Positions 23,861-50,731 are shown, numbered from the stretch's first letter. The stretch is DNA of 64,000 nt from Dictyostelium discoideum (GCA_000004695.1 CM000152.2:2624001-2688000); one strand, 5' to 3'. Translations and numbers: made by a program. Notes: generated by a model not told the origin, from the sequence alone.

Positions 23861-24227
23861 TGCAACATAAAATTTTTATTGCCATTGATTAATTTTTTAG
23901 GTTTTTTTATTTTGTTTTTTTTTTAATTTTTTAAGTAGAAGTATTTTTAAAAAATTAATAAAAAACGAAGGTTAAATAAATAAAAATTAGAGCCAGTTTT
24001 CCCTCAAAATAAAAAAGGCTATTTTCAATACGTCCTGGTGAAAAATTTCACAACAACCTCATACTGTTTATGTATTGCACATTATCATATTTATTTTTAT
24101 TATTCATTGTGTGTCTCAAGACCTTATAAAATTGACAGATATCTCTTTTTGAAAAATCTATTTTTATTTATAATTTTTTTTTTTTTTTTTTATTTACTCT
24201 AATAATTTTTTATAAATTTCCTTGATA

Positions 24228-24500
24228 CTATTTTTCCTCGATAATCTTAAAACAATTCCAAGGATATACACATGGGCTATTGTTGAATTGTTGTTTACAA
24301 GAAGGTGATTTATAAATTTGGATATTACTTGTTATTGGAATTCCTTCGGTTTGTATATCGTCAACATATATAACACTAACACTTGGTGGTATTTCATATA
24401 TTTTTTGATCGAATCCATCCAATAAAAAAAGTGAGGAAACACCTGGTGGTATTGAACCACCCGATAATGGTTTTTTAATAGCTCCAACATATAATGTTTG
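24228..24500 (-). pseudogene. FNIP-repeat exon fragment (B-box/FNIP family, divergent subtype like 48370..48830), 5' part replaced by palindromic repeat
   Basis: …LYVGAIKKPLSGGSIPPGVSSLFLLDGFDQKIYEIPPSVSVIYVDDIQ…YKSPSCKQQFN…; no B-box exons upstream. Confidence 0.6.
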
Positions 24501-24640
24501 CCCCATGCCAAAATTAATATGGTAATTTTTAGGAGCCATATTAATTTCAGCATGCATATACAACCTGTTTTTAGGCTGAAATTAATATGGTAATTTTAGC
24601 CTGCTGGAATTAATATGTTGAAATTGGCATGGAACATATA
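24497..24640. repeat. Palindromic repeat family 2 copy inserted into FNIP exon fragment
   Basis: catgccaaaattaatatggtaatttttaggagccatattaatttcagcatg… with inverted partner. Confidence 0.6.
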
Positions 24641-24954
24641 CTACATGTAATTTCTCACATTTTTAGAAAAGACATTAAAAAAATTTATAACAAACTGCCA
24701 TTAAAAAAAATTTAATATTAATTAAAAATTGATAAAATCTAATATTATTTATTATTGAATAATTAATTTGTTATTAATAAATAAAAAAAATAAAAAAATT
24801 TATTTATTTTTGCCTAATAAAAAGTATAATTTCTTGTAAAATAGTAAAATTTCTAACTTTTTTTCCCGTGGGTGTATATTGTCTCTTGTGAAAAAAATAA
24901 AATAAAATAAAAAATGATAAACTGGATTTATTTAATACTTTTTTATGAGTCCAC

Positions 24955-26296
24955 TTAAAATTCAATTTTAGGCTCCCAATTACCACCATCCCAATTTCTC
25001 ACATTTGAGTGAGTGAGTTGTTGTTTATATTTTGGGCTTCTGTGAATAAGGATTTTGGAATATGGGAAATTTGTTAAAGGAGTATCAAAAAGGAATAACT
25101 CTTTAACTGATTGTGGTATTTCAGTTATTTCTTGATTAAATCCATCTAATAATGACAAAGCAATAACACCATTTGGTATTGAACTTTTTAACAATGGTTT
25201 TTTAATTGCACCAACAAATAGAAATCTAATTGATTGTGGTAGCATGCCTTCTGTCAGTTGAACATTGAATCCATCAAGTAATAGTAAATTTTGAACCGAT
25301 GTTGGAATTGAACCTATTTTAATTGTTTTAACACTTGGTCCAATCGCTACATGAATAGTACCATTTGGAATGATAGAATCATTTTTATAAATAAAATATT
25401 CAGCTGTAAATCTTCCAGCTTTATATAAATAATAATTAAATATTAATAACCCTGTTAAAACAATACTATAGTGTTTTTTAATGATATTTACAAATAACTC
25501 TTTTTGGATCCTTTACATTTGTAATAGAGAGAGAATTGCTAATTTCAAATATTTCTTTAATTGAATTTTTAACTTGTTCGCTATTATTTACAATATTTAC
25601 ATTTTTATATTGATTTATTAATTCTTTGATTTTATTTTCATTTTGATTATCTTTTATTAATAGTTGTGATTGAGAACAATGTTTTAATATTTCAATATGT
25701 TGATCGTTATTATTATTAATGATTTTATCAATATTTATATGATTTATTGTATTTTTATATTTATTTGTAATTAAATTAATATTATTTAAATTATCATGTA
25801 TTGTGGTTGAAATGTTTGTATTGATATCTTTATTTTCATCATAGAGTGTTACTAATTGTTTGATTTTATCAATTTCAATGATTGGTAATAATTTGGAGAG
25901 TTCTTTAAATACTTCTGTGATTGTATTTACATTTTCAGTGTGTTTATCTTCTATTGATTTAAATAAGTTATTTGATTTATTTAATAATTCATTATTGATA
26001 TCAATTTGTTTATCTAAATTTTGAATATGATTATTTTTAAATTCTTCAAAGATTTTTTTTGAATTCTCCACATCTATACGATCAAGTTTATGACCATTAT
26101 GATCTGAAAGAATACATTCAATACATACTACTACCTATTTTATTTATGATAATCATAAAAAATGAGTAAGAATTACCTTTTATTTAAAAGGGTGGAGATA
26201 TGTTACGATATTTACCTTACATGTTGCACATATTATTTTGATTTTGTGCTCTTTATGTATTGCACATTTTCTATCGTATTTATTTTTATTATCCAT
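24955..26296 (-). CDS. B-box zinc finger / coiled-coil / FNIP-repeat protein, array copy 2; exons 26216..26296, 25492..26134, 24955..25418
   Basis: MDNKNKYDRKCAIHKEHKIKIICATCK|VVVCIECILSDHNGHKLD… coiled-coil …KDPKRVI|S GRFTAEYFIYKNDSIIPNG…LLDGFNQEITEIPQSV…; donors GTAAAT, acceptors AG; all phases consistent. Confidence 0.75.
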
Positions 26297-26439
26297 TGTG
26301 TGAGAGAATTTTTTAGAAAGTTAAAAAAAAAAAAAAATTTTGAAAAAAAAAAAAAAAAAAAAAAAAATTCAACTAACCCAAGATGTTGTTATGAATTTAT
26401 TAAAATCCAGATATTTGTAATTAATAAAGAACAATAATA

Positions 26440-26800
26440 ACTACCTTATAAGTTGATCAAATCAATTAATATCATACTCTTTATGTGTTGCACATTTGTT
26501 ATCATATTTATTTAAATTATTCATTGTGTGCGTGTGTTTCAAGACCTTATAAAATTTGAAAAAAAAAAATAAAAAAATAAAAAATTAAAATAATTAAATT
26601 AATCTTTTTTTTTTATGTCGTTTATATTTTTATAATAAAATATTCATATCCTAAAACATAATTTAATATTAATAACCCCTATTAAAACAATCTAATATTA
26701 TTATAATTGTTTTAAAATAATATAGAATATTTACCAATAACTCTTTTTGGGTCTTTTACATTTGTAATAGAGGGAGAATCACTAATTTCAAATATTTCTT
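26440..26800 (-). pseudogene. Solo exon-1 fragment (26440-26540) and exon-2 3'-end fragment (26640-26800) of the B-box/FNIP family
   Basis: …ATGAATAATTTAAATAAATATGATAACAAATGTGCAACACATAAAGAG… and …SDSPSITNVKDPKRVIG|gtaaat… without remainder of gene. Confidence 0.5.
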
Positions 26801-27014
26801 TAAAAATATTTGATTTTATCAATTTTTTTTTTTATGGCAAGTTTCTTTTTTATCAGTTTGTTATAAATCCTATTAAATTATAATAAAATAGTAAAATTTC
26901 TAACTTTTTTTTTCCAGTGGGTGTATATTGTCTCTTGTGAAAAAAATAAAATAAAATAAAATAAAATAAAAAATGATAAACTGGATTTATTTAATGATGT
27001 TTTTATGAATTCAC

Positions 27015-28371
27015 TTAAAATTCAATTATAGGCTCCCAATTTCCTCCATCCCAATTATTCACATTTGAATAAGTGAGTTTTTGTTTATATTTTGAACTTC
27101 TGTAAATGGATTTGGAATATGGGAAATTTGTTAAAAGAGTATCGAAAAGTAATAATTGAAGAACTGATTGTGGTATTTCACTTATTTTTTGATTAAATCC
27201 ATCTAATAAAAACAAACATTGAACACTATTTGGTATTGAACCTTTTAATAATGGTTTTTTAATTGCACCAACTAATAGATACATAATTGATTGTGGTAGC
27301 ATACCTTCTTTTAGTTGAACATTGAATCCATCAAGTAATACCAAATATTTAACCGATGTTGGAATTGAACCTATTTTAATTGTTTTAACACTTGGTGCAA
27401 TCGCTACATGAGTAGTACCATTTGGAATGATAGAATCATTTTTATAAATAAAATATTCTATTCCTGCAGCTTTATATAAATAATAATTTATATTAATAAC
27501 TTCTATTAAAACAATCTAATATTATAATTCTATTAAAATACTATAGTATTTTTTTAAAATATTTACCAGTAACTCTTTTTGGATCCTTTACATTTGTAAT
27601 AGAGAGAGAATTGCTAATTTCAAATATTTCTTTAATTGATTCTTTAACTTGTTTACTATTATTTACAATATTTACATTTTTATATTGATCCATTAATTCA
27701 TTGATTTTATTTTCATTTTGATTATCTTTTATTAATAGTCGTGATTGACAACAATGTTTTAATATTTCAATATGTTGATAACTATTATTATTATTAATGA
27801 TTTGATCAATATTTATTTGATTTATTGTATTTTTATATTTATTTGTAATTAAATTAATATTATTTGAATTATCATGTACAATGGTTGAAATGTTTGTATT
27901 GATATCTTTATTTTCATCATAGAGTGTTACTAATTGTTTGATTTTATTATTTTCAATGATTTGTAATAATTTGAAGAGTTTTTTAAATACTTCTGTGATT
28001 GTATTTACATTTTCAGTGTGTTTATCTTCTAATGATTTAAATAAATTATTTGATTCATTTAATAACTCATTATTGATACCTATTTGTTTATCTAAATTTT
28101 GAAGGTGATTATTTTTAAATTCTTCAAAGATTTCTTTTGAATTCTCTACATCTATACGACCAAATTTATGACCATTATGATCTAAAAGAATACATTCATT
28201 ACATACTACATCCTGTTATAATTGTAATCATACAAAAATGAGCGACAATTACTTTTTATTTAAAGGGTGGAAACATGTTAAAATAATTACCTTACATGTT
28301 GCACAAATCATTTTGATTTTGTGCTCTTTATGTATTGCACATTTGTTATCATATTTATTTATACTATCCAT
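27015..28371 (-). CDS. B-box zinc finger / coiled-coil / FNIP-repeat protein, array copy 3 (393 aa); exons 28291..28371, 27567..28212, 27015..27469
   Basis: MDSINKYDNKCAIHKEHKIKMICATCK|DVVCNECILLDHNGHKFGRID… B-box C-x2-H-x8-C-x7-C-x2-C-x4-H-x2-H; FNIP exon …LLDGFNVQLKEGMLPQSI…LLDGFNQKISEIPQSV…NWDGGNWEPIIEF*; exon lengths 81/646/455 give intact frame. Confidence 0.8.
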
Positions 28372-28474
28372 CATGTGAAAGAATTTTTATTGAAAATTAG
28401 GGAAAAAAAAAAATTTTAAAAAAAAAAAAAAAATATAAAAAAAATAAAAAAAATAAAAAAAATTTGATCGATGT

Positions 28475-28570
28475 AAAATTAAATGTTGTAGGGAATTTTT
28501 TTTGAAATTTCGCTTTCTAAACGGCAGTGAATTTTTACACTAAAATACACTGTTATGCATGGTGTAAAAA
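28475..28570. mobile_element. MITE-like short repeat family 1 (TTGTTGTAGGGAA… / …CAGTGAAWTTT internal palindrome) copy
   Basis: gttgtagggaattttttttgaaatttcg…cagtgaatttttacac…gtgtaaaaattcactaaaa; related copies at 30655, 35709, 40901, 59534 and partial 28815-28880. Confidence 0.5.
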
Positions 28571-28699
28571 TTCACTAAAATTTTTTTATTTTTATAATTA
28601 AATTAAAAAACAATTTATTTAATCAGAACAATAAAAAACCAATTTTATTCAGTTATTTGCTTGTTATTTATTTTTTTATAACAAAAAAATTTAGTTTGC

Positions 28700-28755
<56 letters not shown>

Positions 28756-29493
28756 CAAATTTTTTTTTTCAACATTAAATAAAATTTTTTTTTTTTTTTT
28801 AAAACAAAAAAGTTAATTTGTTGCAGGGAAATTTTTTTTTTTTTTAAAACAAAAAAGTTAATTTGTTGCAGGGAAATTTAAATTTCTTTCCCCTGAACTG
28901 AGAATTTTATTATTTAATTTCACTACACCAACTGAGTGAAAAAAAAAAAATCATTAACCCACCAAAATTCATTGGTATATTACAAAAGTAAATTGATTTA
29001 TGAAAATGAAATGTTTTTTTTTAAAAATTATATTGTAAAGGTTTTATTTAATAAAGTTTATTGTTATTTTTCTAATTTTACCTTTTTTAAAATTTTTTTT
29101 TAAAGTTCAATTTCAGGCTCCCAATCAATCACATTTGAGTTTTGTAACAAGATCTCAAAAATATCTTGTTAATACTAATATTTATTTAATTTTATGAAAT
29201 GTTCTAAACAGAACATTTAAAAATAACTATTAATATTGAATTAATAATTAAATATTAATTATTACTAACTTAATTTATTTTAATAAATTGTTTCATTTTA
29301 TATAATAAACTCCCTAAACCCAATTAAACAATAATTCAAAAATAAATAATAATTTAGAATATAGTTTTGTTTCAACATTTTATTATGACACATACAATTC
29401 AGAAAATAATAATAATTTATTTTATTGTTTTGTTTAAAGGGGTTTTCTCCCGTTGTAATTAAATTTAATTAATTTTAAATTAAATTTAATTTT

Positions 29494-29541
<48 letters not shown>

Positions 29542-29705
29542 TTTGAATTTCACAAAAGTTTTCGTAATAGATATTAGATACCAGATATTAAAAATGTCAC
29601 ACAAAATCACCATATAAAATAATAATATAAATTTAAAAATAATTAAAAGAGAAAATAATAATTAAATTAAAATAATATAATATTGTAGTTTAAATTGGAT
29701 CTAAC

Positions 29706-29833
29706 CCTATCGGCTGAGGTTGGAGTAGTTAACAGATTTGAGTTCGCTCAAATCTAAGGACTATAAAAGAAAACTAGGTTTCTAATTCAACCTCAGTAAT
29801 AGATATATACAAATAATAAAAACGCGATAGGGC
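29706..29833. repeat. 128-bp nested imperfect palindrome (ccctatcg…ctgaggttg…agatttgag-ttcg-ctcaaatct…caacctcag…cgataggg); candidate structured RNA or foldback element
   Basis: Three concentric complementary segment pairs readable directly. Confidence 0.5.
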
Positions 29834-30299
29834 TACGGTCATTAATTAATTTTTGCGTACATTTATTTCTTAAATAATTAATCATTTACTTTAATAATAA
29901 TAAAATAAATAAATTCAATAATAATAAAACAATAAATAAAATTAATAATAAATAATCAAATTTTATTAAATAATTTATTTTAAAAGAATGTCAACTAATA
30001 ATAACGAAGATATTGATAATGATGAATTGCAACAACAGGATAATGAGGAACAAAAACGACAACCACAGGTATCAACATTCAATGAACAGCAACGTCAAAT
30101 AAGGGAACAGCAGCAGGTAATAGATAAACAAAATCAACTTCTTCAACAACACATTCAATTAATAAATCAACAATCTCAACAACAATTAAATAATCATTCG
30201 ACACCACCATCACCCAACATTGCAACACCAATAACTTCAGCAGCAATAACCAACACAATAAAGAAATCATTAGGAAAAATTAACACTGATGATACCGAC

Positions 30300-30970
30300 C
30301 ACCAGTTGTTACAAGTTTTTTTGTTAAATCCATCTAATAAAATTAAATCAATAACACTATTTGGTATTGAACCTTTTAACAATGGTTTTTTAATTGCACC
30401 AACTAATAGATATAATTGATTGTGGTAGCATACCTTCTTTTAGTTGAACATTGAATCCATCAAGTAATAGCAAATATTGAACCGATGTTGGAATTGAACC
30501 TATTTTAATTGTTTTAACACTTGGTGCAATCGCTACATAAGTAGTACCGTTTGGAACGATAGAATCATCTTTATAAATATAACATTCCTGCAGCTTTATA
30601 AAATAATAATTTAATATTAATAACCTCTATTAAAACAATCTAATATTATTATAATTGTTGTAGTGAAAAATTTCACCAAGTATAACAGGGAAAAAAAAAT
30701 TGTTAAATTTCCCTACAACAATAATTCTATTAAAATAATATAGAATATTTACCAGTAACTCTTTTTGGATCCTTTACAATTGCAATAGAGAGAGAATCGC
30801 TAATTTCAAATATTTCTTTAATTGATTCTTTAACTTGTTCACTATTATTTACAATATTTACATTTTTTAATTGATTCATTAATTCTTTGATTTTATTTTT
30901 CATTTTGATTATCTTTTATTAATAATTGTGATTGATGACAATGTTTTAATATTTCAATATGTTGATAACT
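30300..30970 (-). pseudogene. B-box/FNIP family copy 4: truncated FNIP exon fused to unrelated sequence plus 3' half of exon 2, cut off by (att)n tract
   Basis: …GMLYL*… AGMLYIYKDDSIVPNGTTYVAIAPSVKTIKIGSIPTSVQYLLLLDGFNVQLKEGMLPQSI… then frameshift; exon 2 ends at microsatellite 30975-31055; no exon 1. Confidence 0.6.
30655..30721. mobile_element. MITE-like family 1 copy (67 bp) in intron 2 of array copy 4, flanked by TAA duplication
   Basis: attaTAA|ttgttgtagtgaaaaatttcac…aaatttccctacaacaa|TAAttc; orthologous intron of copies 2,3,5,8 reads attataattc (empty site). Confidence 0.6.
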
Positions 30971-30974
30971 ATTA

Positions 30975-31051
<77 letters not shown>

Positions 31052-31089
31052 TTATTATACTAATAATAATATAGATTTATGAAAAAATG

Positions 31090-31330
31090 AAAAGTTGTAT
31101 GCAAGGAAATAATGGAAAAGAGATATGATAAACTTGTTGAATCAGTTGGCTTTTTAAAACATCCTATATCTAATGTGCTTTATCGTGCAATTGCTGCTGA
31201 ATCTACCTCTATTGTTATTGAAACTCCCACTGATTACCAAATCCAAAAAAAATTACTATTCTGGTAAAAGCAAAAGTCATGTGGTTAAATTATTCGTAAA
31301 CATGATAGCTTTCCAATCTTGGGTAATTAT
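31090..31330 (+). mobile_element. Degenerate DNA-transposon fragment encoding HTH-type transposase N-terminus
   Basis: …MEKRYDKLVESVGFLKHPISNVLYRAIAAESTS… ; inverted, more complete copy at 42290-42560. Confidence 0.4.
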
Positions 31331-31383
31331 TTTAAATAACCAAATCACTACCTCTTACCTTAATACTTTGTTATTAATTTTTA

Positions 31384-31426
<43 letters not shown>

Positions 31427-31595
31427 TATTTGTAACATTATTATTTTATTTTTTTTTGGAAAAAAAATATTCAAAATACGGTAAACATTTTTTAATTAAT
31501 TTACCCTAAGCATACTTGAACCTATTTTTTTATTATCTTGTATCATGGTAATATTTTTAGGTTTAGTTAATAATTTTGATAATTTCCAACATAAA

Positions 31596-31638
<43 letters not shown>

Positions 31639-32013
31639 TTATTATTATAATAATTATATATTATTGGTATTTTTTATTTATAAAAATTAAAATCTGGGAC
31701 AATAAAAAAAAATAAAATAACAAAATTTGTTTAAGGGTCATTTTTATTTTTATTGATTTTATTGATTTTATTTTTATTATTTTTATTGATTTTATTATTT
31801 TTATTTTTGTCGTTTGAGAAAGTTTTTTTTTTTTTTTTTTTTGCTTGGAATCTAATAAAATAAATTGTTGTAATTGAATTAATTTTTTTGTTTGATAAAT
31901 ATTATTTATAAGCAGAAAGTTAAATAATTAAGATTAATATTTAATTAGCTATATAAGATTGGAAAAAAAAAAAAAAAAAAAAAAAATTCGGTCTAATTGA
32001 TTATTATTATTTT

Positions 32014-33370
32014 TTAAAGTTCAATTTTAGGTTCCCAAGTTGACAGATTCCAATCTTTCACTTTTGGGTGAGCGAATTGTTGTTTATATTTTGAAGTTCT
32101 GAGAATAAAATTTTGAAATGGGAAATTTGTTAAAGGAGTATCAAATAGGTATAAATGAACTGTTGATTGTGGTATTTCAGTTATTTTTTGATTAAATCCA
32201 TCTAATAAAGACAAATCAGTAACACCATTTGGTATTGAACCTTTTAATAATGGTTTTTTAATTGCACCAACAAATAGATGTGTAATTGATTGTGGTAGCA
32301 TACCTTCTTTTAGTTGAACATTGAATCCATCAAGTAATACCAAATATTTAACCGATGTTGGAATTGAACCTATTTTAATTGTTTTAACACTTGGTGCAAT
32401 CGCTAAATGAGTAGTACCATTTGGAATGATAGAATCATTTTTATAAATAAAACATTCTTTTCCTCCAGCTTTATATAAATAATAATTTATATTAATAACT
32501 TCTATTAAAACAATCTAATATTATAATTCTATTAAAATACTATAGTATTTTTTTAAAATATTTACCAATAACTCTTTTTGGATCCTTTACATTTGTAATA
32601 GAGAGAGAATTGCTAATTTCAAATATTTCTTTAATTGATTCTTTAACTTGTTCACTATTATTTACAAAATTTACATTTTTATATTGATCCATTAGTTCAT
32701 TGATTTTATTTTCATTTTGATTATCTTTTATTAATAGTCGTGATTGACAACAATGTTTTAATATTTCAATATGTTGATAACTATTATTATCATTAATGAT
32801 TTGATCAATATTTATTTGATTTATTGTATTTTTATATTTATTTGTAATTAAATTAATATTATTTGAATAATCATGTACAATGGTTGAAATGTTTGTATTG
32901 ATATCTTTATTTTCATCATAGAGTGTTACTAATTGTTTGATTTTATCAATTTCGATGATTGGTAATAATTTGGGGAGTTCTTTAAATACTTCTGTGATTG
33001 TATTTACATTTTCAGTGTGTTTATCTTCTAATGATTTAAATAAATTATTTGATTCATTTAATAACTCATTATTGATACCTATTTGTTTATCTAAATTTTG
33101 AAGGTGATTATTTTTAAATTCTTCAAAGATTTCTTTTGAATTCTCTACATCTATACGACCAAATTTATGACCATTATGATCTAAAAGAATACATTCATTA
33201 CATACTACATCCTGTTATAATTGTAATCATACAAAAATGAGTGACAATTACTTTTTATTTAAAGGGTGGAAACATGTTAAAATAATTACCTTACATGTTG
33301 CACAAATCATTTTGATTTTGTGCTCTTTATGTATTGCACATTTGTTATCATATTTACTTATACTATCCAT
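32014..33370 (-). CDS. B-box zinc finger / coiled-coil / FNIP-repeat protein, array copy 5; exons 33290..33370, 32566..33211, 32014..32468
   Basis: Same three-exon structure and junction sequences as copy 3; exon lengths 81/646/455; FNIP exon …LLDGFNQKITEIPQSTVHLYLFDTPLTNFPFQNF…. Confidence 0.8.
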
Positions 33371-35550: not shown

Positions 35551-35583
35551 AATTTGTTGTCCTAAAATTGAAAATATGAAAAA

Positions 35584-35615
<32 letters not shown>

Positions 35616-35708
35616 ATAATAATAATTAACCATTAAAATAGGAATTAATAATTAAAAACAAAAAAATAATAAACTTTATTTGTTTTTTTGAAAAAAAAAA
35701 AAATTTAA

Positions 35709-35812
35709 GGTCAGTGAAATTAAATAAAAAAATTCAATGCTACTGTAGTGAAATTAAATAGTAAAATTCACTACGCTGGGCAGTGAAATTTTATTGAAAA
35801 TTCCCTACAACA
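35709..35812. mobile_element. MITE-like family 1 copy truncating array copy 6
   Basis: aatttaaggtcagtgaaatt…cactacgctgggcagtgaaatttt…ttccctacaacaa; same outer motif as copy at 59534-59632 (reverse complement). Confidence 0.5.
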
Positions 35813-36235
35813 ATATCTTTATTTTCATCATAGAGTGTTACTAATTGTTTGATTTTATCAATTTCAATGATTTGTAATAATTTGGAGAGTTCTTTAAATA
35901 CTTCTGTGATTGTGTTTACATTTTCAGTATGTTTATCTTCTAATGGTTTAAATAAATTAATTGATTCATTTAATAACTCAAAGATTTCTTTTGAATTCTC
36001 TACACCAATACGATCAAATTTATGGCCATTATGATCTAAAAGAATACATTCTACACATACTACTACCTATTATATTTATAATAATCATACAAAAATGAGT
36101 AAGGATCTTTTATTATTTAAAGAGGTGGATATTTGTTACGATAATTACCTTACATGTTGCACAAATCATTTTAATATCGTGCTCTTTATGTATAGCACAT
36201 TTGTTATCATATTTATTTATATTATTCATTGTGTG
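35813..36235 (-). pseudogene. B-box/FNIP family copy 6: exon 1 plus 5' part of exon 2 with internal deletion, 3' end replaced by MITE
   Basis: ATG ~36231 MNNINKYDNKCAIHKEHDIKMICATCK|…; exon 2 breaks at 35813. Confidence 0.55.
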
Positions 36236-36365
36236 AGAATTATTAAGAAAAAATAATGGAAAAAAAAAAAAAATTTAGAAAAAAAAAGTTTCTGGATTTT
36301 CAATTTAAATCAAAAAAAAAAAAAAACCCAGTTGCGATTTTAAAATTATTTTATTATTTTTTAAT

Positions 36366-37755: not shown

Positions 37756-39115
37756 TTAAAATTCAATTATAGGCTCCCAACCACCACCATCCCAATTATT
37801 CACATTTGAACAGTGAGTGAGTTTTTGTTTATATTTTGGGTTTCTGTAAATGGTTTTGGAATATGGGAAATTTGTTAAAAGAGTATCGAAAAGTAATAAT
37901 TGATAAACTGATTGTGGTATTTCACTGATTGCTTGATTAAATCCATCTAATAAAAATAAACATAAAACACCATTTGGTATTGAACCTTTTAATAATGGTT
38001 TTTTAATTGCACCAACTAATAGAGATTTAATTGATTGTGGTAGCATACCTTCTGTTAGTTCAACATTGAATCCATCAAGTAATATCAAATATTGAACCGA
38101 TGTTGGAATTGAACCTATTTTAATTGTTTTAACACTTGGTGCAATCGCTACACGAACAGTACCATTTGGAATGATAGAATCATTTTTATAAATAAAATAT
38201 TCTTTTCCTCCAGCTTTATATAAATAATAATTTATATTAATAACCTCTATTAAAACAATCTAATATTATAATTCTATTAAAATACTATAGTATTTTTTTA
38301 AAATATTTACCAGTAACTCTTTTTGGATCCTTTACATTTGTAATAGAGAGAGAATTGCTAATTTCAAATATTTCTTTAATTGATTCTTTAACTTGTTTAC
38401 TATTATTTACAATATTTACATTTTTATATTGATTTATTAATTCTTTGATTTTATTTTCATTTTGATTATCTTTTATTAATAGTCGTGATTGACAACAATG
38501 TTTTAATATTTCAATATGTTGATAACTATTATTATTATTAATGATTTGATCAATATTTATATGATTTATTGTATTTTTATATTTATTTGTAATTAAATTA
38601 ATATTATTTAAATTATCATGTATAATGGTTGAAATGTTTGTATTGATATCTTTATTTTCATCATAGAGTGTTACTAATTGTTTGATTTTATCAATTTCAA
38701 TGATTGGTAATATTTTGGAGAGTTCTTTAAATACTTCTGTGATTGTATTTACATTTTCAGTATGTTTATCTTCTATTGATTTAAATAAATTATTTGATTT
38801 ATTTAATAACTCATTATTGATACCTATTTGTTTATCTAAATTTTGAAGGTGATTATTTTTAAATTCTTCAAAGATTTCTTTTGAATTCTCTACATCTATA
38901 CGACCAAATTTATGACCATTATGATCTAAAAGAATACATTCATTACATACTACATCCTGTTATAATTGTAATCATACAAAAATGAGTGACAATTACTTTT
39001 TATTTAAAGGGTGGAAACATGTTAAAATAATTACCTTACATGTTGCACAAATCATTTTGATTTTGTGCTCTTTATGTATTGCACATTTGTTATCATATTT
39101 ATTTATACTATCCAT
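37756..39115 (-). CDS. B-box zinc finger / coiled-coil / FNIP-repeat protein, array copy 8; exons 39035..39115, 38311..38956, 37756..38213
   Basis: Intact frame across exons (81/646/458 nt); junction sequences as in copy 3. Confidence 0.8.
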
Positions 39116-39712: not shown

Positions 39713-39745
<33 letters not shown>

Positions 39746-40393
39746 CTTTCATTCATTGTTATTCAATAACAAATAATTAATTGTAAATAATTTACTTTTA
39801 TTTGAGCAAAAATCAAATGTAATTTCAAAATTCAAAATAAAATAAAAAAAAATAAATATATATTTTAATTTGTTTATTTTATTAAAATTTTTAAAAGCAG
39901 ATTTATTACTATTATTATTATTTTCACATGATTTGCGAAGTTTTTTTATTATTATTTTTATTTCCTTATTTTTATTTCCTTTTTTCCATTTCTTTTCTTT
40001 TCTTTCCTTTTCTTTCTTTTTATTTTTTATTTTTTTTATATATTTGACTTGGTTAGAAAGAACTTAAAATAAAAATTTTTAAAAATAAATAAATGCACAA
40101 AAAAAAAAAAAAGAGAAATATTAACACTTTTGTTTTTTGTTTTATAACAACACTATAAAAAAAAAATAAAAAATTAAACAAAATAAAAAAAAAATAAATA
40201 AATAAAAATAAAAATAAAAACAATTTTTAGGTTTGGGTTACCAAGATTTATTTAAATTTAAATTTAAAAAAGGAAAAAAAAAATTTTAGAAATCTGGAAA
40301 AAAAAAAAAAACTGAAACCAAATGGAAGAATTGGGAACCAATTTGCCAAAATCAAGTTTGTAGTGTTGTTATTATTATATAATTCATATTTTT

Positions 40394-41872
40394 TTAAAGT
40401 TCAATTTTAATCTCCCAATTACTAAGATCCCAATTATTCACATTTGAGTGAGAGAGTTGTTGTTTATATTTTGGGCTTCTGTAAATGTATTTGGAAAGTG
40501 GGATATTTTTGAAAGGAGTATTCAAAAGGTAGAAACTGTTAACTGATTGTGGCAATTCACTTATTTCTTGATTAAATCCATCTAATAAAAACAAATTTAA
40601 AACACCATTTGGTATTGAACCTTTTAATAATGGTTTTTTAATTGCACCTACCAATAGAGATTTAATTGATTGTGGTAGCATACCTTCTGTTAGTTCAACA
40701 TTGAATCCATCAAGTAATAGCAAATATTCAACCGATTTTGGAATTGAACCTACTTTAATTGTTTTAACACTTGGTGCAATAGCTACAAATCCACTACCAT
40801 TTGGAACGATAGAATCATCTTTATAAATAAAATACTCAATTCCTACAACTTTATAAAATAATTTAATAACCTCCATTATAACAATCTAATATTATTATAA
40901 TTGTTGTAGTGAAAATGAGCAGGTTTTTTTTTTTTACCAACAGTAGTGAAAAATTTCACCAAGTATAGCAGGGAAAAAAAAAATGTTAAATTTCCCTACA
41001 ACAATAATTCTATTAAAATAATATAGAATATTTACCAGTAACTCTTTTTGGATCCTTTACATTTGTAATAGAGGGAAAATCGCTAATTTCGAATATTTCT
41101 TTAATTGATTCTTTAACTTGTTCACTATTATTTACAATATTTACATTTTTATATTGATTCATTAGTTCATTAATTTTATTTTCATTTTGATTATCTTTTA
41201 TTAGTAGTCGTGATTGATGACAATGTTTTAATATTTCAATATGTTGATAGTTATTATTATTATAATTATTATTATTATTAATATTATTTTTATTATTATT
41301 AATGATTTGATCAATATTTATATGATTTATTGTATTTTTATATTTATTTGTAATTAAATTAATAGTATTTAAATTATCATGTACAATGGTTGAAATGTTT
41401 GTATTGATATCTTTATTTTCATCATAGAGTGTTACTAATTGTTTGATTTTATCAATTTCAATGATTGGTAATAATTTGGAGAGTTCTTTAAATTCTTCTG
41501 TGATTGTATTTACATTTTCAGTGTGTTTATCTTCTAATGATTTAAATAAATTATTTGATTTATTTAATAGCTCATTATTGATACCAATTTGTTTATCTAA
41601 ATTTTGAATGTGATTATTTTTAAATTCTTCAAAGATTTCTTTTGAATTCTCTACATCTATACGATCAAGTTTATGACCATTATGATCTAAAACAATACAT
41701 TCAACACATACTACTACCTATTAAATTTATAATAATCATATCAAAGAATCACTTTTTATTTAAAGGGGTGGATATATGTTACAATAATTACCTTACATTT
41801 TGTACAAATCAATTTAATATCATGCCCTTTATGTATTGCACATTTGTTATCATATTTATTTATACTATCCAT
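40394..41872 (-). CDS. B-box zinc finger / coiled-coil / FNIP-repeat protein, array copy 9; exons 41792..41872, 41036..41717, 40394..40848; MITE in intron 2
   Basis: Intact frame (81/682/455 nt); exon 2 carries in-frame 36-nt poly-N insertion (…IINNNKNNINNNNNYNNNNYQHI…). Confidence 0.75.
40901..41004. mobile_element. MITE-like family 1 copy (104 bp) in intron 2 of array copy 9, same site as copy-4 insertion
   Basis: attaTAA|ttgttgtagtgaaaatgagc…aaatgttaaatttccctacaacaa|TAAttc. Confidence 0.6.
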
Positions 41873-42289
41873 TGTGTGAGAGAATTTTTAAGAAAATTTA
41901 AGAAAAAAAAAAAATTTGGGAAAAAAAAAAAAAAAAAAAAAAAATTAAAATAAAATAAAATCTAATTTTTTGATGTTGGAAATCTTGTTTTGTGAAAAAA
42001 AAAAAAAAGATATTATTTTTTTTTTATTTTATATTTTATTAAACTAATATTAATTTTTTATTTATTTTTGACTATTTAAATTGTTTTTATTTTTTTATTA
42101 TTTAATCATTTGATTGTTTTAATATTTTTTACGAATAATTTGACCATTATTATAGTCTATTTTGGTCTTTTATAGTATATATTTGATCATGATCGGAACC
42201 TGGGAATCCCTCAGGATGTAGTAACATTAATCTGTATGATCTAGTGCATACCTCACAATGAAATTTGACCACATGACTTTGCTTTTACA

Positions 42290-42560
42290 AGAATAGTATT
42301 TTTTTTTGGATTTGGTAATCAGTGGGAGTTTCAATATCAATAGAGGTAGATTCAGCAGCAATTGCACGATAAAGCACATTAGAAATAGGATGTTTTAAAA
42401 AGCCAACTGATTCAACAAGTTTATCATATCTCTTTTCCATTATTTCCTTGCATACAACTCAAAGTGAATGAATGGTTGACTATAGTGATTTTGAAATGTT
42501 TTTGGACTAATACCAAAAGTAACACATATCTCATAAATTGGAAGATATTGTTTCCATTAT
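42290..42560 (-). mobile_element. Degenerate DNA-transposon fragment with HTH (…LPIYEICVTFGISPKTFQNHYSQPF…) followed by frameshifted MEKRYDKLVESVGFLKHPISNVLYRAIAAESTSIDIETPTDYQ…
   Basis: Minus-strand translation; inverted relative to the 31090-31330 copy. Confidence 0.45.
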
Positions 42561-43939
42561 AAGAGAGTCTTACACAAAAAAAATAAAAAATAAATAATGT
42601 TGTTAATAATTCATTTTATTTTTTACATTTTTTATTTTTTTTTTTTTTACATTTTATTTAATTTAGGACTTGGTGTAATTTTACTAAATAATTTAATTTA
42701 ATTTAATTTAATTTAATTTATTTTAATTTTTTTTCATATAATTTAAAAAAATGAGTGGTTTTTAATGGTAATATTATTGTCTAAAAATAGATATTTTTTT
42801 TTTAAAATAATATTATTTTTTTTTTTCATTCAAATTTAGAAATTTCCGGAAAATCTTAAAAAATACGTATTTCATTTAAAAGTAAAGCTATTTTTGTTTT
42901 TTTTTCTTTAAAAAAAACATATTATTGTAAAAAAAAGATGTATTTTTGGAAAAAAAATATTATTTTAAAATTTTATAATGTTAAGGGGGTAAAAAAAAAA
43001 TTTTTACTAATTATGTTAATCGGGGTGTTAAATATTCTTTAAAAATTTTTTTTTGAAGTTGTGTTTTTTAATTAAATAAATAAATTCATAATTATTTCCT
43101 TCTATTAATAAAAAAAAAAAAAACCCAGTAAAATGTTAAAATATAATTAATTAAATCAAATTTTAATAAAAGTTTGTAATTCTATTTTATAAATAAATAA
43201 AAATTATCAAAAAATAAGATTAATAATAACAAAAAAATAAAATAAAATTTATAAAAAATGAAACTTTTTATAAAAAAAAAAATAGCATTTTTTATTAAAA
43301 TTTAATTAATACTAAAAAATATTAGAATTTTTAAATTTTATTAATTGGTGTTATTTTTTTTTTTAAAAATAATTATAATAATTATTAGAAAATAGGATAT
43401 TTTATAAAAATAAGATTATTTATAAAAAATAACCTTTATTATTATATATTAAAAAATAAGATAAATAATAATAAAAAAAAATATATTAATAATTGATACA
43501 TTAAATAATTTTTAACATATTTTATTAAAATATAATAGATCTTGTATGGAAAATCATCACTGGTGATTTAAGTAATCAATTTTTATTTTTGGAGAATAAG
43601 ATGTTTAAAAAATAATAAAATAAATTATAAATTGGAAAATTTTATAATATTCAACATATTTATTTAAAATATAAGTAATCCAACTTGGTTTTTTTTTTAT
43701 TTTTTTATTTTCTTTTTTTTTTATCCATTTTTACTATATTTTCAAACTTTTTTTTTTATTTTCAAACTTTTCATTTTTACATAAAATTTAATATAAAAAA
43801 ATATAATAAAATTAAAAAAAAATAAAATAACAAAATTTGTTTAAGGGTCATTTTTATTTTTATTGATTTTATTGATTTTATTATTTTTATTTTTATTATT
43901 TTTATTGATTTTATTATTTTTATTTTTGTCGTTTTAGAA

Positions 43940-44001
<62 letters not shown>

Positions 44002-44170
44002 TGGAATCTAATAAAATAAATTGTTGTTGTAATTGAATTAATCTTTTTGTTTGAAAAATATTAATTATAAGCAGAAAGTTAAATAATTAAGATTAATATT
44101 TAATTAGCTATATAAGATTGGAAAAAAAAAAAAAAAAAAAAAATTCGATCTAATTGATTATTATTATTTT

Positions 44171-44926
44171 TTAAAGTTCAATTTTAGGTTCCCAATTTGA
44201 CACACCATTCCAATTACTCATTTTTGGGTGAGTGAGTTGTTGTTTATATTTTGGAGTTCTGTGAATAAAATTTTGAAATGGGAAATTTGTTAAAGGAGTA
44301 TCAAATAGGAATAAATTAGCTGATTGGGGTATTTCAGTTATTTTTTGATTAAATCCATCTAATAAAAACAAATCAGTAACACCATTTGGTATTGAACCTT
44401 TTAATAATGGTTTTTTAATTGCACCAACAAATAGATATCTAATTGATTGTGGTAGCATACCTTCTTTTAATTGAACATTGAATCCATCAAGTAATATCAC
44501 ACATTTAACCGATGTTGGAATTGAACCTATTTTAACTGTTTTAACACTTGGTGCAATCGCTACATGAGTTGTACCATTTGGAATGATAGAATCATCTTTA
44601 AAAATAAGATATTCATTTCCATCAGCTTTATATAAATAATAATTTAATATTAATAAAATAATTAAAACAATCTAATATTATTATAATTTGATTAAAATAC
44701 TTAATGATATTTACAAGTAACTCTTTTTGGGTCCTTTACATTTATAATAGAGAGAATTACTAATTTCAAATATTTCTTTAATTAAATTTTTAACATGTTC
44801 ACTATTATTTACAAAATTTACTTTTTTATATTGATTCATTAATTCTTTGATTTTTTTTTCATTTTGATTATCTTTTATTAATGGTTGTAATTGACAACAA
44901 TGTTTTAATATTTCAATATGTTGATG

Positions 44927-44998
<72 letters not shown>

Positions 44999-45593
44999 AT
45001 TATTATTATTATTATTAATGATTTGATCAATATTTATTTGATTTATTGTATTTTTATATTTATTTGTAATTAAATTAAAAATATTTAAATTATCATGTAT
45101 AGTGGTTGAAATATTTGTTTTGATATCTTTATTTTCATCATAGAGTGTTACTAATTGTTTGATTTTATCAATTTCAATGATTTGTAATAATTTGAAGAGT
45201 TCTTTAAATACTTCTGTGATTGTATTTACATTTTCAGTATGTTTATCTTCTAATGGTTTAAATAAATTATTTGATTCATTTAATAACTCATTATTGATAT
45301 CAATTTGTTTATCTAAATTTTGAATATGATTTTTAAATTCTTCAAAGATTTCTTTTGAATTCTCTACACCAATACGATCAAATTTATGGCCATTATGATC
45401 TATAAGAATACATTCTACACATACTACTACCTATTATATTTATAATAATCATACAAAAATGAGTAAGGATCTTTTTTTATTTAAAGAGGTGGATATATGT
45501 TACGATTATTACCTTACATATTGCACAAATCATTTTAATATCTTGCTCTTTATGTATAGCACATTTGTTATCATATTTATTTATATTATTCAT
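44171..45593 (-). pseudogene. B-box/FNIP family copy 10: three-exon structure preserved but 2-bp deletion near end of exon 2 (~44760) gives premature stop before the FNIP exon; (att)n expansion in exon 2
   Basis: …AATTCTCTCTATTATAAATGTAAAGG… vs …AATTCTCTCTCTATTACAAATGTAAAGG… in intact copies; frame then reads …KGPKKSYL*; exon 2 length 716 nt not ≡1 mod 3. Confidence 0.6.
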
Positions 45594-46349
45594 TGTGTGA
45601 GAATTATTAAGAAAAAATAATAAAAAAAAAAAAAATTTTAGAAAAAAAAAGTTTCTAGATTTTCAATTTAAATCAAAAAAAAAAAACCCAGTTGCGATTT
45701 TAAAATTATTTTATTATTTTTTAATTATTTTTTTTTTTTTTTTTTTTTTTAAAAACTCAAAAATTTAATTATTTGACTAGAATAATTTATAATCTTAAAT
45801 TTTATTTTGAGAAATCTTGTTTTGAGAAAAAAAAAAAAATATTATTTTTTTTTATTTTTTATTTTATTAAACTAATATTAATTTTTTATTTATTTTTGAC
45901 TATTTAAATTGTTTTTATTTTTTTATTTTTTTTTAAAAATAATTGTTTTCTTTTTTCTCTTTTGGTAAAAATTAAAAAATAATAAAAAGTATAAATTATT
46001 TCCATTAATAATTTATTTTGTTTAGTTTGAAAGGTTGTCTTATTCAATGGATAAATAATTAAATTCTATTAATTTACTTTTTAGTTTATTAAAATAAAAA
46101 ATAAAAAAAAATAATATTTTTATTTTATTACAATAGTTTTATAATCATTTTTTAAAATAAACTTATTTAAAATATTTTATGTGGTGGTTTGAAAGCCTTT
46201 AATTATATATAAATCCATATTGATATTTGTTTATAATTAAAAAAATAAAAAAAAAAAAAATAATAACAGGTTGCTGAAAATGGCATAATGGATTTATTTA
46301 ATGATGTTTGTTATTATTTTATAATTCATACTAATTTTTGTAAATCTAC

Positions 46350-47723
46350 TTAAAATTCAATTTTAGGCTCCCAATAATAAGCAGTATCCCAAGTATACAC
46401 CCTTGGGTGAGTGATTTGTTGTTTATATTTTGTGCTTCTGAATATGTTTTTAGAATATGGGAATTTTGTTAAAGGAGTGTCAAAAAGTAATAATTCTTTA
46501 ACTGATTGTGGTATTTCACTTATTGCTTGATTAAATCCATCTAAAAAAAACAAATTTAAAACACCATTTGGTATTGAACTTTTTAATAATGGTTTTCTAA
46601 TTGCACCTACAAAAAGATGTGTAATTGATTGTGGTAGCATGCCTTCTGTTAGTTTAACATTGAATCCATCAAGTAATATCACACATTTAACTGATGTTGG
46701 AATTGAACCTATTTTAACTGTTTTAACACTTGGTGCAATCGCTACATGAGTTGTACCATTTGGAATGATAGAATCATCTTTATAAATAAAACATTCATTT
46801 CCACCAGCTTTATATAAATAATAATTTAATATTAATAAAATAATTAAAACAATCTAATATTATTATAATTTTATTAAAATACTTAATGATATTTACCAGT
46901 AACTCTTTTTGGGTCCTTTACATTTGTAATAGAGAGAGAATTGCTAATTTCGAATATTTCTTTAATTGATTCTTTAACTTGTTCACAATTATTTACAATA
47001 TTTACATTTTTATATTGATTTATTAATTCTTGGATTTTATTTTCATTTTGATTATCTTTTATTAACAGTCGTGATTGATAACAATGTTTTAATATTTCAA
47101 TATGTTGATAGTTATTATTATTTTTATTATTATTAATGATTTGATCAATATTTATATGATTTATTGTATTTTTATATTTATTTGTAATTAAATTAATATT
47201 ATTTAAATTATCATGTATAGTGGTTGAAATGTTTGTATTGATATCTTTATTTTCATCATAGAGTGTTACTAATTGTTTGATTTTATCAATTTCAATGATT
47301 TGTAATAATTTGGAGAGTTCTTTAAATACTTCTGTGATTGTATTTACATTTTCAGTGTGTTTATCTTCTAATGATTTAAATAAATTATTTGATTCATTTA
47401 ATAACTCATTATTGATATCAATTTGTTTATCTAAATTTTGAATGTGATTATTTTTAAATTCTTCAAAGATTGTTTTTGAATTCTCTGCATTTATAAAATC
47501 AAATCTATGACCATTATGATCTGAAACAATACATCCATCACATACTACTACCTTGAAATAATAAAAATAGAGACAATGAGAATTACTTTTTGTTTTAACA
47601 AGTGGTAAATGTTTTTAAATAATAAAAAACTATAACTACCTTACATGTTGAACAAACTAATCTAATATCAAAATCTTTATGCAATGCACATTTATTATCA
47701 TATTTATTAATTAGAGTAGTCAT
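46350..47723 (-). CDS. B-box zinc finger / coiled-coil / FNIP-repeat protein, array copy 11; exons 47640..47723, 46897..47551, 46350..46807
   Basis: MTTLINKYDNKCALHKDFDIRLVCSTCK|VVVCDGCIVSDHNGHRFDF…; intact frame (84/655/458 nt). Confidence 0.75.
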
Positions 47724-47812
47724 TTGGTTTGGAAAAAATATAAATATTTAGCAATTAAAATTTTATTAATTTGTGAAATTTTCAAAAAAAAAAAAAATAA
47801 AAAAAAAATAAA

Positions 47813-47849
<37 letters not shown>

Positions 47850-47899
47850 AAATAAAAATAAAATTTTGAACCAAAAAAGGATTTAAATTCATTTTAATT

Positions 47900-47935
<36 letters not shown>

Positions 47936-48369
47936 GAATGGATTGATTCTTTTATTTCCCTACTAGAAAAAGTGATCAATTTTAATTTTTTTTTTCTTTT
48001 TTATTTAAATAATAGTAAAAAAAAAAATATATTTCCAAAATTCTAACAAATTTAAAACAATCACAAAAAAATAATAATAAGTTCACTGCAAATCTCATTA
48101 TTCCAAAAAAAATATCTTTTCAAAATAGAAAAAAAAAAAAATAAAAATCCAATTCCAGAAATTTCTGTGAAAATGAAAAAAAAAAAAAATTAGTGATTTT
48201 TTTGATTGAAAAAAAAATAATTAGTGATTTTGTATGTTGAAAAAAAAACAAAAAAAACAAAAGAAAAAAATAAAGTGAAAATAAATAAATAATTTGGCTA
48301 AAGAAAACCGTAATTTTTTTAAGATTGCATATTGTACAATTTATTATAAGTTTTTTTTTTTTTTTTTTT

Positions 48370-49661
48370 TTACATTTCAATTTGAGAGTAACCATTTGAA
48401 TTCCATAACACTTCATTAAAACCATTGAGATCTTGTTTACAAGAAGGAGTTTTATAAACTCTAACTGATTTTATTAAAGTTTGAGGGATTTTAAAAGAAG
48501 TATCACCTAAATAGATTTGAGTAACATTTGGTGGTATTTCAGAGATTTCTTGATTGAATCCATCTAATAAAAATAAAAATGAAACACTTTGTGGTATTGA
48601 TTTCTTTATCAATGGTTTTCTAATGGCACCAATATGTAACCATTGGACGGAATTTGGTAATAAACCTTCAGTTAATTGAAGATTAAAGCCATTTAATAAT
48701 GCAATTCTTTGAATAGTTGCAGGAATTGAACCAATTGTTAAATTTTTAATACTTGGTCCTAATGCTAAATAAAGTGTGCCATTTGGTATAACACAACCAT
48801 CTTTATAAATGAAATATTCACCACCACCCACTTTTTTGTTTTTTTAATTATAATTTAAAATAATTAGGAATTAGTTTTAAAGGATTTTAAAAAATTAAAA
48901 AATTAAAATAAATTAAAATATTATATTTACATTTTACTCTTTTTGGATCTTTATAAGTTGCAGAACTTAATTTAATTTTAAAAGTATCTTTAATTGAATT
49001 CTTTACAAAATCCATTGAATTTTCAATTGTAACTTTATTAAATTCATTTAATAAATCAATATTTTTATTTTCAGTATTCTTTTCTTTTACCAACATTTGA
49101 GATTGATGACAATGTTTTAATAATTCTAAATGTTGATGATTATTTCCTTTAATATTTTGATCATTATTAAAAATTTGTTGGATATTAAAATTATTAATTG
49201 TATCCTTGTATTTATTTGTAATTAAATGAGCATTCTTTGAATTATTTTCAAGTTTTTTTGAAATTTTTGAATGAGTTTCTTTATTTTCATCATAATGACT
49301 GACCAAATGTTTAATGGTATCCTTTTCAACTGAATCCAAAATTGTATGTAATTGTTTAAATTCATTGGAAATTGTATTGACATTGTGAATATGTTCCTCT
49401 TCAAGTTCATTAAAAATCTCATTTGATTTATTTAATAATTCTTTATCACCATCCAAACATTTAATTAAAAATTGAAAATTATTATTTTTAAATTCTTGAA
49501 AAATTTGATTACAATTTTCAGAGGTAATAAAATCAATTGAATGGCTACGATGATGATTTTTTGAAACAATACAATAATCACAAACTGGAACTCTACAATC
49601 ACTACAAATAAATCTATAATCATAATCATTATGTAGTGTACATTTATTATCAAATTTACCT

Positions 49662-49666
<5 letters not shown>
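48370..49666 (-). CDS. Divergent B-box zinc finger / coiled-coil / FNIP-repeat paralog (array copy 12, 398 aa); two exons 48931..49666, 48370..48830 (no intron within B-box)
   Basis: MAGKFDNKCTLHNDYDYRFICSDCRVPVCDYCIVSKNHHRSHSIDF… ; donor GTAAAT at 48930 phase 1, acceptor aaaAG 48831; …LLDGFNQEISEIPPNVTQIYLGDTSFKIPQTL…. Confidence 0.8.
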
Positions 49667-49715
<49 letters not shown>

Positions 49716-50731
49716 TTAAAACAATATTTTTTTTTTTTTTGTTTTTTGTTTTTTGTTGAGATGTCAGTTGTTTTGGATGATCAAAATAAAAAAAAGAAAA
49801 TAAAAAAAAAAAAAAAAAGTAAATCAATTTTTTTTTTTTTTTTAAAAAAGTAAAAAATAAAAAAAAAAAAAAAAAAAAAAAAGTTTTTAAATATATTCGA
49901 TCAGTGGATAGTTTTCACATAAAGAAGCTGTGCAACCCAACATAGAAAAAATGGGGTATTAGTTTAATTTATTTGGGCACCAAAACACTTTTTTTTTAAA
50001 AAAAAAAATAAAAACTCTGCTGAATATCAATGTGATTTTTTCTTTTTTTTTAATTTTGATTTTTTGATTTTTTTTTAATTTTTTTATTATTTTTTTTTTT
50101 TTTTTTCTGATATTCTGGAAAAACTTAAATTTCGACTTTTAAAATCATTATTAATTTCATTGCTTCCTTCTATTATTTTTTTTAATTATTTTTATTTTTA
50201 TTTTTTTTTTATAAATGTGGTTTTTAAAAAATCTCAGATTAATCTTGACGTAAGGATATTTTTTTTATTGTGTTATAGAAGTTTTTTTTTTTTTTTTTAT
50301 ATTATAATACCAACCCATATATTAATTATTCACACGTGTGCTTTGAGTTTTTAAAAATATCAAAGAATAAATTTAAATTTCTAAAGAAATTTTATTAAAA
50401 TCCCAACCTGATATTTAAAATATAAAAAAAAAAAAAAAATTTATGTAATTTCACATTAATTTTCAAAATGTGGATTATTCTACCAAATAATTTTGGCAAA
50501 ACAGACTATATTAAAAAAAATATTTTTTTTTTTTTTTTTTTTTCTCCAAGTAAATTATTAAAAACATATGATTTCAGAATATTATTTTGATTAAAAGTTT
50601 TAATAATATTAATAAGAATAATAATGATTAACAATAAAACAATAATAATTAAAATAATAATTTATTTATTTAGTTTTATATATTTTAGAGTTTTCGTTCG
50701 AAACTTTTCGTTATTTTTCGACCGAGAACTC

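Follow-up and report, generated by a model that had tools for sequence, protein, structure and literature searches.

The tandem gene array described here raises the question of what an amoeba might do with a family of TRIM-like proteins whose genes are partly intact and partly dead. The array lies in a 64,000-nucleotide stretch of chromosome 3 of Dictyostelium discoideum AX4 (GCA_000004695.1 CM000152.2:2624001-2688000; about 20% G+C; hereafter the window, with positions counted from its first letter), the source being identified by spliced products that match AX4 proteins exactly. We hold, with about even confidence, that the locus consists of areA, the gene of Autophagy regulator A (AreA), followed by a head-to-tail young array of areA paralogues that would act as diversified cytosolic leucine-rich repeat (LRR) adaptors on autophagy initiation. 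The array genes are already known, all seven intact ones having been annotated in AX4 and the key member, areA, having a name and a function, and what appears to be new is the array-level picture, with areA heading a fast-evolving, positively selected TRIM-like LRR family. A full-text literature search by the gene identifiers of the paralogues returned nothing beyond the AreA paper (Mesquita et al. 2015, PMC4554924), which treats areA as a single gene and is silent on the adjacent array, its turnover and selection; the main review of cell-autonomous defence in Dictyostelium makes no mention of the paralogues and gives a TRIM37 orthologue as the only TRIM. A first-pass annotation, made from the sequence alone, held neither the existing gene annotation nor the identity of the head copy as AreA with its published Atg101 role.

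Searches with a spliced copy (tblastn) and with a whole unit (blastn) located the family units on the minus strand only, between 24.06 and 49.67 kb. The content of the array is 12 units (u1-u12) and two small relics, with seven of the units intact and five decayed; the first-pass annotation had counted at least 12 collinear minus-strand units, which agrees with this inventory, and the two relics are additional to it. Lengths are in amino acids (aa).

48370-49666, minus strand: u12, areA (DDB_G0279871), head of the array; two exons (49666-48931 and 48830-48370), 398 aa
46350-47723, minus strand: u11, DDB_G0279873; exons 47723-47640, 47551-46897 and 46807-46350; intact, 398 aa
44171-45593, minus strand: u10, pseudogene; frame broken by a 2-bp deletion near the end of exon 2; poly-Asn (AAT)n tract expanded
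40394-41872, minus strand: u9, DDB_G0279877; intact, 405 aa; intron 2 longer than that of the other copies
37756-39115, minus strand: u8, DDB_G0279879; intact, 394 aa
36576-37533, minus strand: u7, dead; begins at the exon 2 (AAT)n tract; 2-bp deletion in exon 3
35813-36287, minus strand: u6, dead; keeps only its 5' part, from the promoter region through exon 1 and intron 1 to the middle of exon 2
32014-33370, minus strand: u5, DDB_G0279899; intact, 393 aa; a chimera
30324-31052, minus strand: u4, dead; truncated at both ends, starting at the exon 2 (AAT)n tract; frameshifted
27015-28374, minus strand: u3, DDB_G0279897; intact, 394 aa
26436-26803, minus strand: relic that runs from the end of exon 2 through intron 2 into the start of exon 3, combined with a second promoter/exon-1 piece
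24955-26296, minus strand: u2, DDB_G0279891; intact, 395 aa
24228-24563, minus strand: u1, remnant (the ~90 final codons) of a third subfamily, which has two exons
24064-24113, minus strand: exon-1-like relic at the distal edge of the array

Splice-aware models yielded intact proteins of 393-405 aa for u2, u3, u5, u8, u9, u11 and u12, the same seven copies that had been called intact before, with conserved GT..AG introns at fixed positions in an alignment of the eight full-length units. Exon 1 encodes 27-28 aa and stops after the second Cys pair of the B-box, exon 2 (643-682 nt) continues from there, and exon 3 encodes the FNIP repeats and, in the young copies, the terminus ...WEPKIEF/L, which confirms the proposed partition of the domains over the exons. 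The claim of one shared gene model stood for the three-exon copies; it did not for u12, which has two exons and lacks intron 1 (inside the B-box), so that a single model is not common to all copies. Each of the five copies listed as decayed (1, 4, 6, 7 and 10) is indeed so, with the 2-bp deletion of u10 where it had been described, although the damage differs in part from that first described: u4 is frameshifted as well as truncated, u7 is 5'-truncated as well as frameshifted, and u1 belongs to another subfamily. From its sequence, u1 (70% identical to the C-terminus of ACTFIW_006817 versus 55% to AreA) is best described as a relic of the third distal subfamily and not as a decayed copy of the young one; in the wild strain ACTFIW this subfamily is the array's distal member and is intact. 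The 2-bp deletion in exon 3 is identical in u4 and u7, which indicates that both are copies of one already-dead unit. A single gene interrupted by an insertion, with u6 as its 5' half and u7 as its 3' half, was considered and rejected, since the two lie in the wrong order for this on the minus strand.

The (AAT)n microsatellite of exon 2 encodes poly-Asn in every unit, varies several-fold in length and is longest in u10 (e.g. 44900-45050 in u10, 41230-41330 in u9 and 30950-31050 in u4); the truncation points of u4, u6 and u7 coincide with this tract, which falls in a low-confidence loop of the AlphaFold models. The AX4 gene models of two or three array genes appear wrong. That of DDB_G0279899 (u5; 373 aa) begins at an internal Met and therefore cuts off the first two B-box zinc ligands, that of DDB_G0279897 (u3) also has 373 aa versus 394 aa in the present model, and that of DDB_G0279879 (u8) has 488 aa versus 394 aa in both the present model and the annotation of the AX4-lineage assembly ACTFIT.

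All seven intact proteins scored above the Pfam gathering cut-offs for both zf-B_box (34-36 bits, cut-off 24.1) and FNIP (PF05725; 31-60 bits, cut-off 21), with E-values in AreA of 1.9e-8 and 1.8e-10 respectively, while no RING was found by Pfam in any of them. The proteins begin 8-11 residues ahead of the first B-box zinc ligand, and all eight zinc ligands of a B-box2 (C-H-C-C-C-C-H-H) are present in every copy that retains the B-box, the u10 pseudogene included. About six or seven FNIP repeats of the form LLDGFNxxL...(I/L)PxS are visible in the alignments. AlphaFold models of AreA (predicted local distance difference test, pLDDT, 84) and u2 (pLDDT 86) share one layout, in which the B-box is followed by a continuous helix at residues 49-153 (105 residues), return helices at 162-226 and a beta-solenoid to the C-terminus; the long helix probably forms a dimerising coiled coil. 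In these models the C-terminal domain has the LRR solenoid fold of CroV588 and CroV539, and a family profile run against Protein Data Bank (PDB) sequences matched CroV588 (an FNIP-type LRR) at 2e-54. The other PDB profile matches were TRIM B-boxes (TRIM28, 8.6e-5; TRIM3, 4.7e-4, the latter reaching into the helix) and, as the one non-TRIM match outside the LRR, a Toxoplasma conoid-ring protein. Foldseek returned the B-box/coiled-coil regions of TRIM28, TRIM72 and TRIM5alpha with probabilities of 0.97-0.99, but with E-values of 0.02-0.15 and low TM-scores, and matched only the LRR part to a viral library.

With a B-box, a long helix, TRIM B-box/coiled-coil proteins as closest solved relatives and no RING, the architecture is that of the earlier proposal, and in form it can fairly be called TRIM-like, RING-less and with an LRR where SPRY would be. 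The proteins are nonetheless not members of the TRIM family, since they have no RING and their C-terminal domain, an FNIP-type LRR and not PRY-SPRY, NHL, COS-FN3, PHD-bromo or MATH, falls outside the recognised TRIM classes. The array sequences showed neither a signal peptide nor a membrane span, and a membrane span is unlikely because the sole hydrophobic window is the Cys/Val-rich core of the B-box.

The head of the array, u12, is an exact match to AX4 protein XP_641480 and is the only unit that falls in the AreA orthologous group, by its exact protein and by its position beside an NLE/WD40 gene; it is about 48-51% identical to the other units and has the same B-box/coiled-coil/FNIP-LRR layout. 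AreA (DDB_G0279871) was found as a partner of Atg101, a member of the Atg1/ULK complex, by yeast two-hybrid and confirmed by pull-down, and is a negative regulator of autophagy whose knockout raises autophagic flux (PMC4554924). Its fusion to green fluorescent protein (AreA-GFP) is cytosolic, the gene is expressed in growing cells and less so on starvation, and the HHpred matches to TRIM proteins reported by the same authors did not extend beyond the B-box (PMC4554924). Purifying selection on AreA is strong, and the concave face of its LRR is nearly invariant: the orthologues of three other species are 91-98% identical, with a ratio of non-synonymous to synonymous substitution rates (dN/dS, or omega) of 0.06-0.11 at a dS of ~0.3 (0.05-0.07 in the LRR), and 17 of the 18 concave-face residues are identical across four species. 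AreA occupies the same position in wild strains as well. Its C-terminus (48370-48390) reads ...NGYSQIEM, in which YSQI would match the core pattern of an Atg8-interacting (LIR/AIM) motif; at this place the young copies have ...WEPKIEF/L.

At least two members, AreA and u5, are transcribed and respond to bacteria. At 2.5 h post infection with M. marinum, AreA was changed by log2 -2.05 (false discovery rate, FDR, 4e-4) and u5 by log2 +1.38 (FDR 0.017; PMC6902447). On bacteria, AreA rose by log2 +3.2 (K. pneumoniae) and +5.7 (B. subtilis), and u5 by log2 +2.46, a value assigned to the B. subtilis sheet from its position in the file (PMC7078664). These two are the sole array members in the two supplementary tables; the other paralogues are absent from both differential-expression lists, which is weak evidence because reads from near-identical copies map ambiguously.

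In the adaptor reading that we prefer, each intact gene would give rise to a cytosolic RING-less TRIM-like adaptor made of a B-box2, a helix of ~105 residues with its return helices and a short FNIP-type LRR. Each paralogue would recognise a different ligand through its own LRR, most plausibly something made by microbes or a host target that microbes have modified, and the common scaffold would act on autophagy initiation, or the Atg1 complex, like the 'receptor-regulators' among animal TRIMs. The array may in this way have an anti-pathogen role. A bolder version, possible though distinctly less probable, would make the array a strain-polymorphic repertoire of cytosolic LRR sensors on the TRIM-like B-box/coiled-coil scaffold, each directed to its own microbial or viral ligand or guarding Atg101/AreA against effectors, that switch autophagy initiation; with the same tentativeness, such a repertoire could be regarded as an amoebal counterpart of TRIM5-type 'precision autophagy' or of nucleotide-binding LRR (NLR) guards, put together from a B-box and an FNIP-LRR independently of animals.

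A different and rather unlikely explanation is neutral birth and death, in which areA would be the sole functional gene, the duplicates would drift to pseudogenes and the variable LRR positions would be an unconstrained surface. Five dead units of 12 and the absence of most paralogues from the differential-expression tables fit such drift, as do two ratios of non-synonymous to synonymous differences (pN/pS), 0.84 overall and 1.08 in the LRR. Pooled over the seven young AX4 copies, pN/pS was 0.75 in the B-box, 0.61 in the coiled coil and 1.05 in the C-terminal tail. Since a whole-exon dN/dS of about 1 cannot separate drift from selection, it was replaced by a test of a pre-defined site class. 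The concave face was taken as the 18 codons at positions 2, 3 and 5 in the six strand motifs h-x-x-h-x-h, fixed in advance from general LRR knowledge; the strands predicted by AlphaFold coincide with these motifs. Parsimony counts were made on a neighbour-joining tree of 18 exon-3 copies, all uninterrupted, taken from AX4 and from three wild strains.

On this tree the concave-face sites had 143 non-synonymous and 12 synonymous changes, a dN/dS of 2.8 (binomial P=7e-5), compared with 0.65 in the rest of the LRR and 0.49 in the hydrophobic core (concave versus rest, Fisher P=6e-8). Nine non-overlapping sister pairs gave 1.97 for the concave face versus 0.57 elsewhere (Fisher P=5e-5; binomial P=0.02). 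The concave-face residues of the paralogue LRRs are replaced above the synonymous rate and the scaffold is almost unchanged, so that the higher dN/dS foreseen for the FNIP exon was recovered and localised to the predicted binding face. Neutral drift is at odds with pre-defined sites above neutrality, with values below 1 in the rest of the LRR, its core and the coiled coil, with the retention of splice sites and all zinc ligands and with the transcription and regulation of u5. Six open reading frames (ORFs) of ~395 codons persist although 5.5% of point changes would make a stop codon; the probability of finding no stop is ~0.04 once divergence reaches 0.05, and it is improbable that the intact copies have stayed open by accident. 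The B-box/coiled-coil scaffold is kept by mild purifying selection together with recent duplication or gene conversion.

The array itself is young, strain-variable, recombining and partly decaying, which supports turnover by birth and death. Profile searches found the family in the genus Dictyostelium only. A common frame, with an NLE/WD40 gene on one strand (54.2-55.7 kb in the AX4 window), AreA on the other and then paralogues, was seen in D. citrinum, D. dimigraforme and three wild D. discoideum-type strains, so that the synteny sought in other species is present and includes areA; the locus fetched from D. firmibasis has the 3' end of AreA at its edge and paralogues, without the flanking gene. 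Behind AreA, D. firmibasis has 2-3 units, D. citrinum has 2 and D. dimigraforme has 5; wild D. discoideum strains have about 3-7, and AX4 has 11 (6 intact). The B-box intron is limited to the expanded clade, AreA and the third distal subfamily having two exons. Mean dS among the AX4 paralogues is 0.11, compared with a background of 0.05 between AX4 and wild strains and 0.26-0.34 between species. From the promoter as far as mid exon 3, units u3, u5 and u8 share 96-100% identity even in their introns; beyond this point u5 changes from the u3/u8 type to the u10 type. Recombination has moved whole LRR segments from copy to copy, and breakpoints recur at the (AAT)n tract of exon 2. Copy-number differences, mosaics and the shared dead allele of u4 and u7 all bear out the decay that had been suspected, with gain, loss and death of copies fast enough to be seen between strains. 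The 592-aa gene and Rsm22 that border the array in other strains and species were not found in the AX4 window; in ACTFIT, long terminal repeat (LTR) retrotransposons (rve, RVT_1) follow the array, with no further copies (locus L007).

This strain-level variation also bears on a housekeeping explanation, in which the paralogues would be adaptors for different endogenous partners or cargoes (substrates of selective autophagy, for instance, or other complexes), involving no microbes, and would have switched partners after duplication. We consider it improbable, to about the same degree as neutral drift, even though the sole tested member, AreA, acts on a core host complex, the scaffold is conserved where the LRR has diverged, and FNIP-LRR proteins are very numerous in Dictyostelium with function mostly unassigned. 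Endogenous partners are conserved within a species, yet u2 and its likely ACTFIW orthologue are 86% identical in exon 3, a difference of 14% at a synonymous divergence of only 0.05 (dS 0.048, dN 0.068), whereas exon 3 of AreA has a dN of 0.006 between AX4 and ACTFIW. Copy content varies between strains, and the same sites go on being replaced in many lineages, a pattern typical of conflict and not of a single change of partner.

The weakest rival, a self/non-self (kin or allorecognition) system as the first-pass annotation had offered among its candidates, would suit a strain-polymorphic and fast-evolving array but is very improbable and found no support, because the proteins are cytosolic (sequences without signal peptide or membrane span; AreA-GFP in the cytosol) and expressed in growing cells, areA falling on starvation (PMC4554924), and no array member occurs in the one chimeric-development gene list examined.

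Several points nevertheless weigh against the adaptor reading itself. No ligand is on record for any member, and Atg101 binding is on record for AreA alone. The overall paralogue omega of 0.84 is high and, together with the death of nearly half of the units, implies that much of the array may be drifting. The dN/dS values come from counting methods that do not correct for the recombination among these paralogues, and hence are approximate, and the site set is small. Only AreA and u5 are in the expression tables, where the mean expression of AreA is low and the reads of near-identical copies are ambiguous in their mapping. The phenotype of the areA knockout is mild and may be buffered by the six intact neighbours. 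Lacking a RING, the proteins provide no evidence for E3 ligase activity.

Dictyostelium is a main model for cell-autonomous defence and xenophagy, and reviews grant it only one TRIM and no polymorphic family of intracellular receptors. If the paralogues are ligand-specific adaptors of the Atg1 complex, they would offer a genetically tractable example of receptor diversification directly coupled to autophagy initiation, and the design of a B-box/coiled-coil scaffold with a hypervariable recognition domain would have arisen outside animals. The same reading, if true, would give a testable role to part of the large and mostly unexplained FNIP-repeat family that is common to amoebae and giant viruses.

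The spacers of the array (28.4-30.3, 33.5-35.8, 39.3-40.4 and 42.0-44.1 kb) contain no conserved gene by tblastx and blastn against the loci of other species and strains, and their ORFs have no Pfam match, with no sign of functional genes. Two spacer segments (35563-35812 and 28902-29113) share a ~250-bp repeat (71-80% identity) with 59533-59789 outside the array. On the plus strand, 29988-30419 is a 143-aa Gln/Asn-rich ORF, antisense into the dead u4 and without Pfam match, that is annotated as a gene in ACTFIT (L007 5912-6343). Close relatives of the young clade (64-79% identical) lie on the non-array D. discoideum contigs P0013, P0017, P0010, P0014, P0015 and P0021, so that the family also has dispersed members (e.g. 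ACTFIT_002104 and ACTFIT_009554), and D. purpureum has its own clusters on single contigs.

Elsewhere in the window are the following features.

8481-8554, plus strand: tRNA-Cys(GCA)
8852-10105, 10105-10953 and 10917-13808: ORFs of a non-LTR retrotransposon ~300 bp downstream of the tRNA-Cys, the last with a reverse-transcriptase domain (RVT_1, 8e-34); the element at 8481-13808 looks like a tRNA-gene-targeted TRE-type retrotransposon
14120-15986, plus strand: flanking diphthamide-synthesis gene (Diphthamide_syn, 2.5e-50)
17846-21487, minus strand: flanking gene of a 1213-aa protein, extremely Gln/Asn/Ser-rich
21864-21963 and 58767-58866: 100-N assembly gaps, the first 2.3 kb beyond the distal end of the array
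51535-51607, minus strand: tRNA-Glu(UUC), in the gap that separates areA from the NLE/WD40 gene; its flanking ORFs of 131 aa and 444 aa (interval 50948-53164) have no Pfam match and are possibly retroelement remnants; 51.5-51.6 kb is conserved at the D. citrinum and D. dimigraforme loci

Compared with known systems, the array proteins are unlike those of tgrB1/tgrC1-like allorecognition, which are at the cell surface and have a signal peptide and a membrane anchor. Among FNIP/FGxxFN LRR proteins they differ in having ~6-7 repeats fused to a B-box/coiled coil, the viral FNIP proteins being often fused to an F-box, and the most variable positions of CroV588/CroV539 are 8-9, between FG and FN (PMC9525666), as opposed to strand positions 2, 3 and 5 in the array proteins. 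Within the locus, the paralogues differ from AreA by the extra intron inside the B-box and by a hypervariable LRR face that is nearly invariant in AreA. No defence phenotype of the kind known for immune-receptor clusters is on record for the array, and its proteins differ from those of plant NLR/LRR immune clusters in lacking NB-ARC/NACHT or TIR domains and in their much shorter LRR; both, however, are arranged in tandem, vary in copy number, include pseudogenes, recombine between copies and show positive selection at the solvent-exposed xxLxLxx strand positions. From animal TRIMs they differ by the missing RING and by a recognition domain that is an FNIP-type LRR and not PRY-SPRY, NHL or COS, and sequence similarity is limited to the B-box and the start of the helix; common descent is supported no further than the B-box. 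With RING-less TRIMs and the TRIM5alpha-type autophagy receptor-regulators they share, as modelled, a B-box2 that leads straight into a long helix, probably a coiled coil, with return segments, and a C-terminal domain predicted to bind ligands. A physical link to the ULK/Atg1 complex (here through AreA) is also common to both, as are tandem clusters that evolve fast and whose recognition domain is under positive selection.

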